64,000 nt of DNA, taken from sequence record NC_018859.1; one strand, given 5' to 3'. Numbering within the stretch: position 1 is the first letter of the stretch; each line of letters opens with the position of its first letter. This document shows positions 19,786 through 62,385 of the stretch, one piece after another. This DNA comes from Escherichia phage ECBP2. A model generated the notes under the pieces. It worked only from the letters and a program-made list of their open reading frames with translations. It was not told the origin of the DNA and did no database searches. A program made the position numbers and the translations under genes.

Positions 19786-20377
19786 AGAGATCTCTCCGTG
19801 TCTGTGCAATACTGTACTCTAAATACTCCACTGCCTCTTCTACAGAACCATCATTAAAGAGAAGATAGGTTGAAAGGTTCGTGCCTTCAATATAGGAACG
19901 AGAGTCTCCTTCAAAAGTACATCCATCCCGATAAATCTGAATTACTCGAACATCGAAATGCTTTTCCAGTTCTTCAACTTCTGCTTTGAATCCACCATCA
20001 GAGAAAACGATAACATCGTTCTGTCCTAGCAGTTGTTGTTGTTGAATGCTGCTAACAGCAAGTTTACCCATGCAGGTATCCCCAAACATTGGCTTCAGAT
20101 AGTTCTCACTAGTTGAAATCATCAAATCTCGAACTGACTTACCGCCCCATTCAGGACGGTTATGTTCTTTCCACTCACGGTCGTTGTACAGCTCCATGAA
20201 CTCATGAAGAGGGAGACCTAATGCAGCAGCAGCCACTCGATACATAGGCTCCTTAAAAGCCTTTACATGAGGTCTAAACTCATCGTTACCGAGTGTCTTC
20301 TCTAACCAAGAATTAGCGATTGTATCTTTACCACAACCCGGTGGTCCATTCAGAATTACTACTAATGGTTTACTCAT
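19778..20377 (-). CDS. P-loop nucleotide kinase (dNMP kinase-like)
   Basis: Walker A ILNGPPGCGKDT at the N-terminus. Size and layout match small phage deoxynucleotide kinases. Confidence 0.55.
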   Translation of the reverse strand: MSKPLVVILNGPPGCGKDTIANSWLEKTLGNDEFRPHVKAFKEPMYRVAAAALGLPLHEFMELYNDREWKEHNRPEWGGKSVRDLMISTSENYLKPMFGDTCMGKLAVSSIQQQQLLGQNDVIVFSDGGFKAEVEELEKHFDVRVIQIYRDGCTFEGDSRSYIEGTNLSTYLLFNDGSVEEAVEYLEYSIAQTRRDLYA

Positions 20378-21027
20378 TATTGAATCATCCCTTGAAGATC
20401 TTCTTTATCAAAGTGCTTCTCTACTACCGCTTCATACAGATCACGATTCTCTGCATAACGGCGATAGAAAGTTCCGTGTGAAATTCCCAGCTCCTGCTGG
20501 ATGTGATCATGAGGTATTCCAAGGAAGAGCATAGAGAACATGCTTGCCATTTTCTTGGTATCCATAATATCACTTAAGTCTTGGAAGAAGAAAAAGATTC
20601 TAGATTCCAAGAATGGGTCTCCAGTAGAGTCATGCTTATCCATCGCAATCTCTAAAGGACTTTCCCACGAGTTCATCTCAGGAGGTCTAAACATATCAGC
20701 CTCTGGAATAGAGTAGATACGTCGGTCTCCAACTGTCTGACGGTTAGAACGAATTGACCAGATGATATTCTTAACACGATAAGTCATGTGCTCAATATCT
20801 TTTTCATCAGTGAGCAGAAGTTCTTCTTGCTTTGCAAACACAAAACGCCAAGCGTTCAGTAACACTTCCTGAGCAACATCCTCTGCTTCGTGATAATCTT
20901 TAATGTCATACATAAAATACTTATGCACAACTTTCCAGTTCTCCCGATAGAATTCATCGAAGGTTGGATAATACTTAATAGGAATGCCATGAATACGATA
21001 GCGTGTAGGTGTTGTCTTTTTCTTCAT
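20377..21027 (-). CDS. ECF-like sigma factor
   Basis: Region 2-like [17 protein letters not shown] and region 4 HTH-like [27 protein letters not shown]. Confidence 0.75.
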
Positions 21028-21824: not shown

Positions 21825-22565
21825 TTAGAAAGGGCTGTCATCTTCTTCAAAGGTAGATTGCGGCTCTTCATTAATAGTAGGGATACTTGGAGTCGCGTCT
21901 TTCTGTTCAGTGTCAGAAGCGCGAGTAACTTCACGACCGGCCAGAGGAATGTTTTTAGCATCGTTAGCTTGAGTCAGAAGGTTACGTTGGAATGGAAACA
22001 TAGCTTGATAAGCAGCCAAGTTGGCGTCAGTTTCAGCGTACGGTTCGAAGAAGATAAGGTCGCTACGAGGAGCACCTACTGCATCACGATACTTGGTCGG
22101 GATTGGAGTGATGCTCTTGATGGAGTTTTTCTTCTCACCAGCTTTGTTGGTGTAAGAGTTAACTAGAATGTTGACAGGCTGACCAAGCAGCATATCTTTG
22201 AACCAACCCAAATCACCTTTCAGTGCTTGAACACTTGGGTCGATCATTTTAATTAGGTTCAGAATACCAGAGTTCTTAGCTCGTGGGTTTACATCGAAGG
22301 ATTTAAACTGACAAGCAGGACGTGGGTCCAATGCCTTACCATCACTATCTGTACCAGTTGCGTCAACACCAATCAGTTCAAATGCCAAGTCCATACGGAA
22401 AGCTGGGTTCTTAGGAGTAACTGCTTTGGTCTTAGGGTCAATCCAAGGGTCACGATTGTGAACACCTAAACCTACTACACGAACAATTCGTGCTTCGTAC
22501 TCGCCATCAGGGATTACATCGTAGTTGGATTTACGGGATACAGACAGTTCAGGGATCATAGACAT
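21825..22565 (-). CDS. ssDNA-binding protein, T7 gp2.5-like
   Basis: Size and the acidic C-terminal tail ending in aromatic F (STFEEDDSPF) match gp2.5-type SSBs. First gene behind a TAATGTATA motif. Confidence 0.5.
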   Translation of the reverse strand: MSMIPELSVSRKSNYDVIPDGEYEARIVRVVGLGVHNRDPWIDPKTKAVTPKNPAFRMDLAFELIGVDATGTDSDGKALDPRPACQFKSFDVNPRAKNSGILNLIKMIDPSVQALKGDLGWFKDMLLGQPVNILVNSYTNKAGEKKNSIKSITPIPTKYRDAVGAPRSDLIFFEPYAETDANLAAYQAMFPFQRNLLTQANDAKNIPLAGREVTRASDTEQKDATPSIPTINEEPQSTFEEDDSPF

Positions 22566-22624
22566 ATTAATATTTCCTTATATAAATTTAAGATTGTTGC
22601 TCTCTTTGAGCGGTTGGTATACTA

Positions 22625-22633
22625 TATACATTA
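22625..22633 (-). promoter_or_regulatory. TAATGTATA motif (candidate phage-sigma promoter) driving the SSB-like gene leftward
   Basis: Minus strand reads GGTGTAATGTATATAGT, 60 nt upstream of the ATG at 22565. Confidence 0.5.
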
Positions 22634-22695
22634 CACCTATACAGATAAGGTTCTATTATACTATAACCTTTTTGGTAGTAGATAACAGTAAGTAG

Positions 22696-22704
22696 TAATG
22701 TATA
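22696..22704 (+). promoter_or_regulatory. Inverted second copy of TAATGTATA motif facing rightward
   Basis: GTAATGTATATA at 22695-22706 is a perfect 12-nt inverted copy of 22623-22634. It faces a structured ORF-free 200 nt segment. Confidence 0.35.
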
Positions 22705-22913
22705 TATGGTATAGTTAGTAAAACTATTGCACGGGACCGACGACTATAAGGCGCGGACAACCACCTCTCATAAGTTTGTTAGAAATTGAGAGACTACCGG
22801 AAGGGCAGGAGACACCTGCGAGATAAAAATAGAGAATTAAGGAAATCCTTGATTTAGGTTGAGGACTCCTAGGACTTTGATTCTCTATTAAAATCAAAAG
22901 AAAACTAATTAAC

Positions 22914-23492
22914 TTACCATTCAATAAACTGATTTAGATTAGTATACTTAACTTCTCTCTGAAACTGAAGATTAGATTCTCTCTGTTTAGTAAGAAGATT
23001 AAGTTCATCTTCCTTTCTTTTATCAAACTCTTTTCTAATCTCTTGCAGAGACACAGCTCTGTAATCAATTTGTTCCATAGAAGTACAAAAGTATCTCCAA
23101 TCTTTGATAGTAGAGTTATGAGTATGAGCATAGATATTATACTTTCCTCTCATTTCATCAGAGTGAATAGGAATATGAGTTACCCAAAACTCTTTGTACT
23201 TATAATCACCACTGATGTGTCTAAAGACTTTCATCATATCAGGGAGAAGTTCTAATCTGTCATGATTTCCTAAGACAAGATGTTTCTCTCCTTTTACTTC
23301 AGCGATGATATCAAGGGCATACTTTTCAAACACCCAATCACCGGTAAAGAAAGTTTTATCACGTTTAGTAACATGGTCAAACGCTGCTAAGATAGCTTTG
23401 TCGTGTTCTTCAATACTACTAAACCTCTTCCTAAAGCTACAGATGTTACGATGGCCTAGGTGACCATCACCTGCAAAATAAACTTCAGCCAT
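22914..23492 (-). CDS. Metallophosphoesterase (calcineurin-like phosphatase)
   Basis: Motifs YFAGDGHLGH, FTGDW and VLGNHD. Start MAEVYF overlaps the upstream stop (ATGGCTGA). Confidence 0.75.
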   Translation of the reverse strand: MAEVYFAGDGHLGHRNICSFRKRFSSIEEHDKAILAAFDHVTKRDKTFFTGDWVFEKYALDIIAEVKGEKHLVLGNHDRLELLPDMMKVFRHISGDYKYKEFWVTHIPIHSDEMRGKYNIYAHTHNSTIKDWRYFCTSMEQIDYRAVSLQEIRKEFDKRKEDELNLLTKQRESNLQFQREVKYTNLNQFIEW

Positions 23493-23652
23493 TCTCGTAT
23501 GTGTCCTCATAATATGAGTAGTTGAAGGATTCAGCTTTCGTTTCAGCCTCCTCCATATCGTCTGTTTCCAGAATCACTCTCCAGCCAGAACCGTTAGGAT
23601 ATTCAGCTCCCTCATCTAGCCAGACTTTGTATCGTTTAGATTGTGCAACCAT
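23485..23652 (-). CDS. Small acidic protein (paralogue of 24220..24399)
   Basis: Shared pattern with its paralogue: KY.VW..E......GW...L.TDD.EEAE......NY..YYE. Confidence 0.45.
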   Translation of the reverse strand: MVAQSKRYKVWLDEGAEYPNGSGWRVILETDDMEEAETKAESFNYSYYEDTYENG

Positions 23653-34760: not shown

Positions 34761-34784
34761 GAGAGTTATCATATCTACTACCAA

Positions 34785-35942: not shown

Positions 35943-37387
35943 GAGTTTCTATTTCCTTGTACAGATGATGCCAAATTGTTAATCATGTTGCGAGCTGTTT
36001 CACGAGATAGTGTAACACCTGCTAAGTTGTTATGAAGCTCACCAGATAGTTCACGAGCAGCAGCTCGAAGTTCTGCACCAAGTGCAGTGTCAGAGTGAGC
36101 CAGACCGTTACGACGACCGACAGGTCGAGGAGTATTGTTAGCATCATTAGCTAAAGATGGAAAATCAATACGAGCAGCTTCACGAGCCGCTATCGCTGCT
36201 ACTCGATCTTCCGTAGGGGTTGGCAAATCACCAACTTCTACACGTTCTATATCACCAGCACATAGACCCTGAACAACTGAGCTTACTGTTTCCCATGAAC
36301 GATGAGAACGCTGTAAATCACCCATTGACGGAGAAGGAATAGGACGAGCAGTTCCCCCTTGAACATGCCATGTACGGTTGTGGGTGTCCGTCCCAGAAGA
36401 ACGTGCACTACCAAAACTACCATTAAAAGTATTACGAGGGTCCATTGTAGAAGGGGCTGCGAATCTTGGGACTTCCTGTTGCCAAGAGTCACGTCTGTTG
36501 GTTCCCGGAGTCCAAGGTTGTGTGATTGCTTCAGCACCGATAGTGGTTAATCCACTAGACCATTCTGTCTGTAGGTTAACTTCCTCGTCCAGATAACTAC
36601 GACCCCTTTCCTGAGGAATGTTTAATATAGTTTCCATCATCTTCAGGGTATAATGACGACGCTGATTCTGATATAAATTTACACCAGCCATAGGTCCAAC
36701 TAAATCACTAATCAGGTGAACTTCTGGCTCACCGAAAGCTCCCATTGCAAGGTGCATATATTCGGTAGAACTGCTATAAACTGCAACAGTTGCTTCAGGC
36801 CACTTCTTGTGAACGTACTTCATTTCACGACTAGATACCACAGGAATGTCACGAGTGTATGACATTGCAAACAAACCTTCGTTTGACACATACAGATTAC
36901 CAAGAGTCATAAACCCTTGACAGATCATAGGGAAGCGACGGCTTAAAGTATCCATATCCAAAGGTAGATTAATCATCATCTGGATTTTAACTTGATCAAT
37001 CTCAATTTCCAGAATCTCTTGGAAAGTGAAAAGCGCTTCAGCATAGGTTGTCCCGTTAACAGGCTGAATTAGTCGAGATGTAACTTGAAGCCCCTTACTC
37101 TCTGTCCAAGACAAGAAGTTGTCAAGGAACAGTGCAGCATTACTTACGTTAGCAGGGCTGTTTTCCTGACGAGTGTTCCAACGGAATCCCCCTTGAACTA
37201 GGAAGATATCAACATCATTCGGAGTTCGATTTTGGAAGAACGTATCACGGATAGCACCACCTGCAATGACAGGATAGATACCATCAGGGACTACGTTATC
37301 TCTGATCAAATTACGAATTAGGTCAAGCCCTACACTGAGGGCTTCTCCTTCTTGAAGGTTCAATTCAGACAATGGAATCTTAATCAT
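35939..37387 (-). CDS. Pol-beta-superfamily nucleotidyltransferase (CCA-adding/poly(A) polymerase-like head) with long low-complexity C-terminus
   Basis: VIAGGAIRDTFFQNRTPNDVDIFLV fits the GG.(V/I)RD...(n)D.D signature of tRNA nucleotidyltransferases. The rest is not recognisable. Confidence 0.45.
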   Translation of the reverse strand: MIKIPLSELNLQEGEALSVGLDLIRNLIRDNVVPDGIYPVIAGGAIRDTFFQNRTPNDVDIFLVQGGFRWNTRQENSPANVSNAALFLDNFLSWTESKGLQVTSRLIQPVNGTTYAEALFTFQEILEIEIDQVKIQMMINLPLDMDTLSRRFPMICQGFMTLGNLYVSNEGLFAMSYTRDIPVVSSREMKYVHKKWPEATVAVYSSSTEYMHLAMGAFGEPEVHLISDLVGPMAGVNLYQNQRRHYTLKMMETILNIPQERGRSYLDEEVNLQTEWSSGLTTIGAEAITQPWTPGTNRRDSWQQEVPRFAAPSTMDPRNTFNGSFGSARSSGTDTHNRTWHVQGGTARPIPSPSMGDLQRSHRSWETVSSVVQGLCAGDIERVEVGDLPTPTEDRVAAIAAREAARIDFPSLANDANNTPRPVGRRNGLAHSDTALGAELRAAARELSGELHNNLAGVTLSRETARNMINNLASSVQGNRNS

Positions 37388-54294: not shown

Positions 54295-54370
54295 TGGTGC
54301 ACCCTACAGGATTCGAACCTGTAACCAACGACTTAGAAGGTCGCTGCTCTATCCATTGAGCTAAGGGTGC
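54295..54370 (-). tRNA. tRNA-Arg(UCU): tRNA-Arg, anticodon UCU, CCA encoded
   Basis: Minus strand folds as a 76 nt cloverleaf: GCACCCT TA GCTC AATGGATA GAGC A GCGAC CTTCTAA GTCGT TGGTT ACAGG TTCGAAT CCTGT AGGGTGC ACCA. Confidence 0.9.
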
Positions 54371-62376: not shown

Positions 62377-62385
62377 TATACATTA
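62377..62385 (-). promoter_or_regulatory. TAATGTATA motif inside the ORF-free region
   Basis: Minus strand reads GATTAATGTATACTTC. Confidence 0.4.

Follow-up and report, generated by a model that had tools for sequence, protein, structure and literature searches.

A putative orphan gp36 promoter heading a conserved, predicted noncoding RNA in phiEco32-like coliphages

Coliphage phiEco32 is a model for transcription directed by a phage sigma factor, and its promoter set is treated as complete at six. The promoters of this sigma factor, gp36, share the consensus tAATGTAtA, with transcription starting 6-8 bp downstream, and the six published examples are P6, P13, P26, P40, P58 and P68 (PMC8948821). 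P68 is transcribed in vitro by RNA polymerase (RNAP) with gp36. In the cryo-electron microscopy structure of the RNAP-gp36-gp79 complex on P68, contacts are made to AATG at -14 to -11, to -37G and to -34A; the latter two bases are contacted by the C-terminal domain of gp36, and their mutation abolishes transcription (PMC12276001). Here we describe a putative further promoter of this kind, oriented against the neighbouring genes, and the structured noncoding RNA (ncRNA) predicted to start from it. Both lie between positions 22,566 and 22,913 of the 64,000-nt sequence of Escherichia phage ECBP2 (NC_018859.1), which as a whole is referred to below as the window. An earlier note on this DNA had drawn attention to the region.

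The window represents a phiEco32-like coliphage of the Gordonclarkvirinae. The 701 nt around the element match 97 phage records, with TH42 as the top match at 92%, and these records are Escherichia/Shigella podoviruses of the genera Kuravirus, Suseptimavirus and Nieuwekanaalvirus. At the locus, the 12-mer GTAATGTATATA occupies 22695-22706 on the plus strand and its exact reverse complement 22623-22634, with a gap of 60 nt, just as the earlier note had described. The note's view of this repeat as a promoter motif also holds, as it matches tAATGTAtA and hence corresponds to the -10 element of gp36 promoters. With at most one mismatch allowed, the 12-mer occurs three times against 0.27 expected. 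The 9-mer alone is not enriched (22 occurrences versus 18.9 expected, again with at most one mismatch), while an 11-mer, GGTAGTAGATA, pairs with the -10 box both times it occurs, and the two-part arrangement is therefore the informative signal.

The plus-strand copy shows this arrangement in full, i.e. GGTAGTAGATA, a spacer of 11 nt and TAATGTATA. Only two exact copies of the 11-mer exist in the 64 kb, and in both an [A/T]AATGTATA box follows after 11 nt; the copy outside the locus (34772-34782, minus strand) lies upstream of the P68 orthologue. For the comparison, every AATGTA[T/G]A site in the window was aligned on -11G. The orphan copy (tttGGTAGTAGATAacagtaagtagTAATGTATAtatggtA) and the P68 orthologue (gttGGTAGTAGATAtgataactctcAAATGTATAtacagtA) have the 11-mer box, the 11-nt spacer and an A start in common, and in phiEco32 itself P68 and the orphan promoter likewise carry an identical box at identical spacing. 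The start site was predicted from the P68 numbering (-14A -13A -12T -11G) together with the rule of 6-8 bp downstream.

The orphan promoter thus has AATG at -14 to -11, as required of the -10 element, and both -37G and -34A, as required of the -35 element. It lacks the usual gp36 trait of preceding a gene, as no conserved plus-strand open reading frame (ORF) lies downstream and the genes around it all run on the minus strand. Judged by its sequence, it is at least the equal of the best-studied gp36 promoter. The right-hand copy may accordingly be a real seventh gp36 promoter, of the P68 type and heading no gene, a proposal that we regard as evenly balanced; being of the P68 type, it would probably be assisted by gp79. 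The list of six published promoters does not include the plus-strand copy. A later computational promoter search in phiEco32 covered only the gene-sense strand of intergenic regions, and a reverse-oriented copy would for this reason have escaped it. The two original phiEco32 papers (Pavlova 2012, Savalia 2008) aside, the literature searched contains no reverse-oriented gp36 promoter or ncRNA in these phages, and it might be that the reverse promoter was seen earlier and left unlisted.

Downstream of the promoter, the segment 22711-22900 folds at -48.6 kcal/mol on the plus strand (z -3.3) and at -42.3 on the minus strand (z -2.2); for the phiEco32 version the minimum free energies are -43.3 and -33.1 kcal/mol, respectively. 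The three hairpins that the earlier note saw in this segment are present, and no credible ORF is found there. Between 22660 and 22870 there is a G-over-C and A-over-T skew, contrary to the surrounding minus-strand genes. A small protein was considered and rejected, since the open stretches lie in different frames in each haplotype, have no start codons and are shifted by 1- and 2-nt indels.

An alignment of sixteen distinct sequences covered the stretch between the predicted start and the 3' stem. The first hairpin, P1, begins at the predicted +1, and two of its six pairs are altered on both sides: UA to GC in two sequences, and CG to UA or AU in four. G-U or U-G pairs occur in P1 in seven of the 16 sequences, where the minus-strand equivalent is an A-C mismatch. 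The double changes fill 6 cells versus 0.8 in shuffles, a value reached in 0 of 500, and all slid registers of the hairpin drop to 33-51% pairing.

P1 is followed by an exchangeable central module that exists in two versions. Version B (~65 nt) is found in three sequences (the window, MN05 and ES17) and shows one compensatory pair, CCG/CGG of the window being replaced by CUG/CAG in MN05. The unrelated version A (~40 nt) is found in the other 13 and contains AUUC-NNN-GAAU, whose hypervariable triloop takes four forms; the hairpins of one version are not those of the other. Different phages combine the P1 variants and the central versions in different ways, which fits recombining modules. The GC content of 0.48-0.52 at 22720-22809 is a trait of version B; the GC-rich composition singled out in the earlier note is thus correct for the window but belongs to a version carried by only 3 of the 16 relatives aligned.

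The 3' domain is nearly invariant, with a mean pairwise identity of 0.954 among 14 relatives. By comparison, identity is 0.76-0.82 in adjacent coding sequence, 0.72 in the spacer between the promoters and 0.45 in the next 24 nt, and as the domain exceeds its coding neighbours it appears to be under selection. Nearly all of its few changes fall in hairpin loops (AGACA/AGCCA; AAAU/AAU/AAAC/AUU), and the loops also vary in length (3 versus 4 nt; 9 versus 11 nt). Since loop lengths vary and stems stay constant, hairpins fit these data better than duplex protein sites. The 3' domain also contains a direct repeat, AGGACU..AGGACU, at 22862-22878. In another haplotype (L014, positions 1733-1752) it reads AGGGACU..AGGGACU, with an extra G in both copies, and this haplotype mostly accompanies small ORFs (gp41/gp42) on the right. 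That both copies changed could go back to a single inherited event, or the repeat could be a paired recognition motif.

All 97 matching records span the region from the -10 box through the 3' domain, so the folded segment, whose absence from relatives the earlier note had named as a point that would speak against it, is kept in every one of them. In these 97 records the annotation of the region is nearly always featureless, and none marks a promoter or an RNA. All 20 GenBank relatives that were fetched have the -10 core AATGTA, and 19 of 20 sequences examined carry an unaltered -35 box; ES17 has GGTAGTATATC instead, with -37G and -34A retained. Phages of the ES17 type have a 47-aa ORF inserted between the two promoters, P40 and the orphan one, with the right-hand unit and the promoter spacing left intact. 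As the unit is kept despite this insertion, the inverted copies seem to be independent units and not one palindromic control site, which weakens the single bidirectional control region suggested in the earlier note. The ES17 ORF (L015, 435-578) has a start codon that abuts the -35 box, and a layout like that of ES17 was seen in the metagenome contigs L034, L036, L038, L042 and L043.

Scanning metagenomes with the RNA core returned six phage contigs and eight chance GC-rich matches, while a scan of genome contigs gave one match, by chance; IMG/VR contains just four such genomes. In Salmonella phage 7-11, Cronobacter phage GAP52 and phages of Proteus, Aeromonas and Vibrio, the regions upstream of the gp40 homologue are short and hold no reverse-oriented promoter copy. 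The 7-11-type promoter motif has one sense-strand match in four of five distant loci, and none in the Aeromonas phage. Since the distant loci show only short upstream regions and sense-strand matches, the element appears to be confined to the Gordonclarkvirinae. The positions of all features are collected in Table 1.

Table 1. Positions of the promoter elements, predicted RNA parts and neighbouring genes in the window
Feature	Position	Strand	Remarks
-35 box GGTAGTAGATA	22674-22684	+	G22674 = -37, A22677 = -34
-10 element TAATGTATA	22696-22704	+	G22700 = -11; within the 12-mer 22695-22706
Predicted start, A	22711	+	11 nt past -11G, 7 nt past the motif
P1 hairpin AUAGUU-AGUAA-AACUAU	22711-22727	+	begins at predicted +1; 6 bp
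Exchangeable central module, version B	22728-22795	+	hairpins at 22737-22756 and 22765-22792
Hairpin CCGACGAC...GGCGCGG	22737-22756	+	inside version B
Hairpin CUCUCA-16 nt-UGAGAG	22765-22792	+	CTCTCA 22765 / TGAGAG 22787; inside version B
Near-invariant 3' domain, ~95 nt	22796-22889	+	ACCGGAAGG, hairpin, A-rich linker, stem with two hairpins
Hairpin GCAGG-AGACA-CCUGC	22805-22819	+	GCAGG 22805 / CCTGC 22815
A-rich linker	22820-22828	+	3' domain
10-bp stem	22828-22837 with 22880-22889	+	ATAGAGAAT 22829 / ATTCTCTAT 22880 = 9 bp of the earlier note
Hairpin AAGG/CCUU (AAGG-AAAT-CCTT)	22839-22850	+	within the 10-bp stem
Hairpin UAGG/CCUA	22855-22871	+	within the 10-bp stem
Same hairpin, minus-strand reading	22820-22889	-	then UUUU(A)UCU; candidate terminator/3' stabiliser
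P40 -10 element	22625-22633	-	predicted start 22618; serves gene 40 (21825-22565)
Hairpin GCUC-AAAGA-GAGC	22600-22612	-	near 5' end of gene-40 leader
gp36-type sigma factor gene	20377-21027	-	
Gene 40 orthologue	21825-22565	-	left of element; orthologous to phi32_40 and 1721_55
Metallophosphoesterase gene	22914-23510	-	right of element
tRNA-Arg (anticodon TCT)	54295-54370	-	sole tRNA gene in the window (tRNA/tmRNA scan)

Based on these observations, we suggest that an independent ncRNA gene is transcribed from the orphan gp36 promoter. This is the best reading of the locus, and we rate the predicted transcript at about even chances. From the middle phase onward, host RNAP with gp36, probably joined by gp79, would initiate at about 22711 and proceed rightward against the flow of the middle genes. 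The product would be a structured ncRNA of ~155-186 nt (~180 in the window; ~155 in phiEco32, genome positions 36719-36872), composed of four parts: the +1 hairpin, the central domain in its two versions, the GCAGG/CCUGC hairpin with the A-rich linker, and a 60-nt stem with two hairpins.

The terminator scan placed no intrinsic terminator of the plus strand behind the 3' stem (the tail reads UAAAAUC in the window and UUAAAAG in phiEco32), and the sole plus-strand terminator called, at 23043-23064, lies within the phosphoesterase gene. Because an intrinsic terminator is absent, we propose that the polymerase would stop, probably via Rho, in the untranslated C-over-G stretch downstream (22870-22959, skew -0.43 to -0.47) and that the RNA would be trimmed back to the 3' stem. 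Read-through of the plus transcript into the gene on the opposite strand is possible. The conserved RNA overlaps no ORF but does overlap the presumed 3' untranslated region of the upstream operon. It might act through the near-invariant 3' domain, with a protein or a short target sequence as the most likely binding partner; the conservation of this domain at the sequence level suggests such recognition more than plain antisense pairing, as a cis-antisense RNA stays complementary at any sequence.

Rfam at gathering scores, run on the whole window, identified only the tRNA-Arg elsewhere. An E-value search at the locus gave a best hit of 0.1 to unrelated snoRNA models, and for the phiEco32 version there was none at E <=1, so the Rfam check advised in the earlier note yielded no family. 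Searches of 5,426 E. coli genomes and of plasmids (PLSDB) likewise gave no similar sequence and no long antisense target. Exact complementarity of at least 11 nt to sense transcripts was absent within the window and was not above random expectation. An RNAduplex target scan produced unrealistic long-range duplexes only and was discarded.

Promoter architecture, conservation, noncoding nature, P1 covariation and strand preference were all read from the DNA itself, and from there we infer the transcript's existence, its 3' end and its function. Several points weigh against an independent ncRNA gene. The orphan transcript is a prediction and not an observation, and one of the six metagenome contigs (L034) has the -10 box TAATATATA, in which -11G is changed to A. 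Covariation comes from one 6-bp hairpin and from few events among closely related, recombining genomes; no stem of the 3' domain varies, so that covariation lends its fold no support, and the conservation of this domain could reflect a constraint at the DNA level or on the minus strand. Owing to G-U pairs, pairing of the helices reaches 99-100% on the plus strand, against 86-92% for helices 1 and 4 on the minus strand, but this strand comparison is biased, as the fold being compared came from a plus-strand prediction. That the RNA is small and discrete is an assumption, since an intrinsic terminator is missing after the stem, and without an Rfam family, similarity to host or plasmid sequences or complementarity of at least 11 nt there is no clue to a target. 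The altered box of L034 (ERZ1034915 NODE_75, ~100 nt upstream of 9043) is the only one found, and the remaining RNA of this contig is intact. RNA-seq reads from E. coli NC101, sampled 10 min after infection with Kuravirus RSB02/RSB04, are available (BioProject PRJNA1225266) and were aligned to the host genome only (PMC12803456).

The left-hand copy of the motif can be identified as P40, as the gene to its left is the gene 40 orthologue and P40 and P55 appear in the published promoter table; the earlier note had correctly assigned this copy to the left gene. The P40 copy is without the GGTAG -35 box. The hairpin in the gene-40 leader, GCTCTCTTTGAGC, is unchanged in 19 of 20 sequences, with one change in EP335. 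Both divergent transcripts would thus open with a 5' hairpin, the one from P40 lying a few nt past its predicted start. A perfect TATAAT is present on the minus strand, as the earlier note reported, though at 22655-22660 and not 22654-22659, and in phiEco32 the equivalent hexamer is on the opposite strand. An extra exact copy of TAATGTATA was found at 62377-62385 (minus strand), in a gene-poor stretch with the sigma-70-like early promoter sequence ATTGACA ... TATAGT. It is without -37G and -34A and is outside the six published gp36 promoters.

The surrounding genes are all on the minus strand and include, besides those in Table 1, a 5'-3' exonuclease, a kinase and a family A DNA polymerase. 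The right-hand neighbour of the element varies, being the phosphoesterase in the window, the 35-aa gp41 in phiEco32 and gp40.1 in LAMP. The gene 40 product has no Pfam, PHROG-function or PDB sequence match. Its acidic C-terminal tail ends in DDxPF, which is invariant in seven homologues from five phage groups and recalls the T7 gp2.5 single-strand-binding protein. The tail thus points the way the earlier note went in calling the left gene SSB-like (single-strand-binding), an identity that is unproven. A single-sequence AlphaFold model of gp40 was too poor (pLDDT, i.e. predicted local distance difference test, of 39) and was not used. We also noticed that UAAGGAAAU in the RNA (22838-22846) is identical to the Shine-Dalgarno region of gene 40 (22576-22584, minus strand), which may just reflect the common Shine-Dalgarno consensus.

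The earlier note had offered three options for the region, i.e. a rightward small RNA, a bidirectional control region and a replication origin, and the small RNA fits best, given the full bipartite promoter, the covariation of the 5' hairpin and its plus-strand G-U pairs. Transcription-activated origins are known from T7 (phi1.1A/B and the gene-less phiOL and phiOR), T4 (oriF/oriG) and ColE1 (RNA II). An origin at the present locus, where the orphan promoter would make a primer or R-loop transcript and synthesis would begin in the AT-rich stretch after the 3' stem, seems unlikely to us. It would account for a gene-less phage promoter inside a replication and nucleotide-metabolism cluster (5'-3' exonuclease, gp40 with its gp2.5-like tail, DNA polymerase A), for inverted and direct repeats kept at the sequence level, and for the lowest local GC (0.23-0.25), which is reached immediately past the stem (22870-22959); gp36-dependent timing would also match the expression of replication genes. 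However, the AT-rich stretch lies ~180 nt from the start, is poorly conserved (0.45 identity) and codes for gp41 in many relatives, GC skew follows gene orientation only and carries no origin signature, origins of the T7 and T4 types need no conserved structured leader of 150-180 nt, and P1 covariation and G-U pairs suggest selection on an RNA fold. A broader proposal, which we find somewhat improbable, is that promoter and transcript together form the replication origin of the phage, firing in an RNA-primed or R-loop mode timed by the phage sigma factor, or that the RNA serves as a phage-made decoy for a host RNA-binding protein through its invariant GGA-rich 3' domain. The window RNA has seven GGA motifs (top 1.2% of same-length windows) and the phiEco32 version four, only the latter being conserved; a CsrA-type sponge might be considered as a lead only.

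The remaining explanations start from the converging operon. For antisense pairing with its mRNA, the OOP RNA of phage lambda, directed against cII, is the precedent. Here the hairpin comes 15-25 nt past the upstream gene's stop codon, whatever that gene may be (25 nt for the phosphoesterase of the window, 15 nt for gp41 of phiEco32), and the leftward mRNAs must therefore hold the complement of the 3' domain. A rightward RNA could thus pair with the 3' end of this mRNA, its last ~60-180 nt being an exact complement, and by its sequence the promoter would be gp36-dependent. Yet complementarity needs no given sequence, which leaves the 95% identity of the 3' domain and the conservation of P1 and the central hairpins unexplained, and the upstream genes vary among relatives. 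We therefore hold such pairing to be decidedly unlikely, and no more probable is the route that it would open, in which RNase III removes the protective 3' hairpin and lowers the upstream middle genes once gp36 is active. Antisense to the phosphoesterase in particular, as the earlier note had it, is not the conserved feature, since the right-hand gene differs among relatives. The same hairpin read on the minus strand is followed by a run of four U, or five if the last stem base is counted, which corrects the length given in the earlier note. This hairpin may also serve the upstream operon, as a 3' stabiliser or a non-canonical terminator, so that the note's idea of a phosphoesterase terminator is plausible, although the hairpin was not called by the terminator scan (2 G-C among 9-10 pairs, and a branched loop of ~42 nt). 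That it is mainly a terminator or mRNA stabiliser closing this operon ahead of P40 is, in our opinion, very improbable, and just as improbable is the accompanying view of the plus promoter as a convergent-transcription insulator or tolerated by-product, with an RNA that has no role of its own. The stem and UUUU(A)UCU just past a stop codon suit such a control region, a barrier to early and middle read-through ahead of P40 is plausible, the stems are invariant, and plus-strand support for the 3' domain consists of fixed G-U pairs only. On the other hand, the A/U-rich stem departs from a canonical terminator, terminators rarely exceed neighbouring coding sequence in conservation, and a bipartite promoter with plus-only G-U pairs in P1, kept across three genera and an ORF insertion, would be left unexplained.

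If an independent ncRNA gene is indeed transcribed from the orphan promoter, a seventh gp36 promoter with its conserved ncRNA would constitute a transcription unit overlooked in every genome annotation of the subfamily, and the transcription map of a model system would be altered. The orphan unit would be a candidate for the replication start site of this group and for a means of tuning middle-gene expression, and an origin or decoy role, if true, would be the first for this phage subfamily, which is abundant and highly resistant to the defence systems tested, according to the BASEL authors. The near-invariant 95-nt domain might also be usable as a subfamily marker.

Among known RNAs, CsrB and RsmZ have in common with the predicted RNA several GGA motifs located at or close to hairpin loops (CAGGAG, UAAGGAA and two UAGG(G)ACU). 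The repeat architecture of CsrB is absent here, there is no Rfam match, and only four GGA are conserved. T4 species 1 and 2 (band C and D RNAs) are likewise structured ncRNAs of ~120-190 nt from a lytic coliphage; these are processed from the transcript of a tRNA cluster, whereas the RNA proposed here would have its own phage-sigma promoter. With T7 phiOL/phiOR and phi1.1A/B and with T4 oriF/oriG the locus shares a gene-less phage promoter and an AT-rich stretch at some distance, and ColE1 RNA II offers a precedent for a structured primer RNA. Unlike the orphan promoter, the T7 promoters point with the genes and have no long structured leader.

Lambda OOP, and also P22 sar, resemble the predicted RNA in being short transcripts from their own promoter that converge on an operon and are complementary to its 3' end. 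OOP, too, maps close to replication functions, and whether it acts as a primer was historically a matter of debate. It is 77 nt long, ends at an intrinsic terminator and overlaps coding sequence, whereas here ~155-186 nt are conserved, without gene overlap and with no plus-strand terminator seen, and sequence conservation goes beyond the needs of antisense pairing. The closest counterpart of the promoter is P68 of phiEco32. P68 heads gene 68 and points with its cluster, whereas the orphan promoter points against the cluster, has no ORF downstream and is active by prediction. The two share the -35 box (T)TGGTAGTAGATAT, the spacing, the [A/T]AATGTATATA -10 box and an A start 11 nt past -11G, and the same holoenzyme would be expected to read the orphan promoter.

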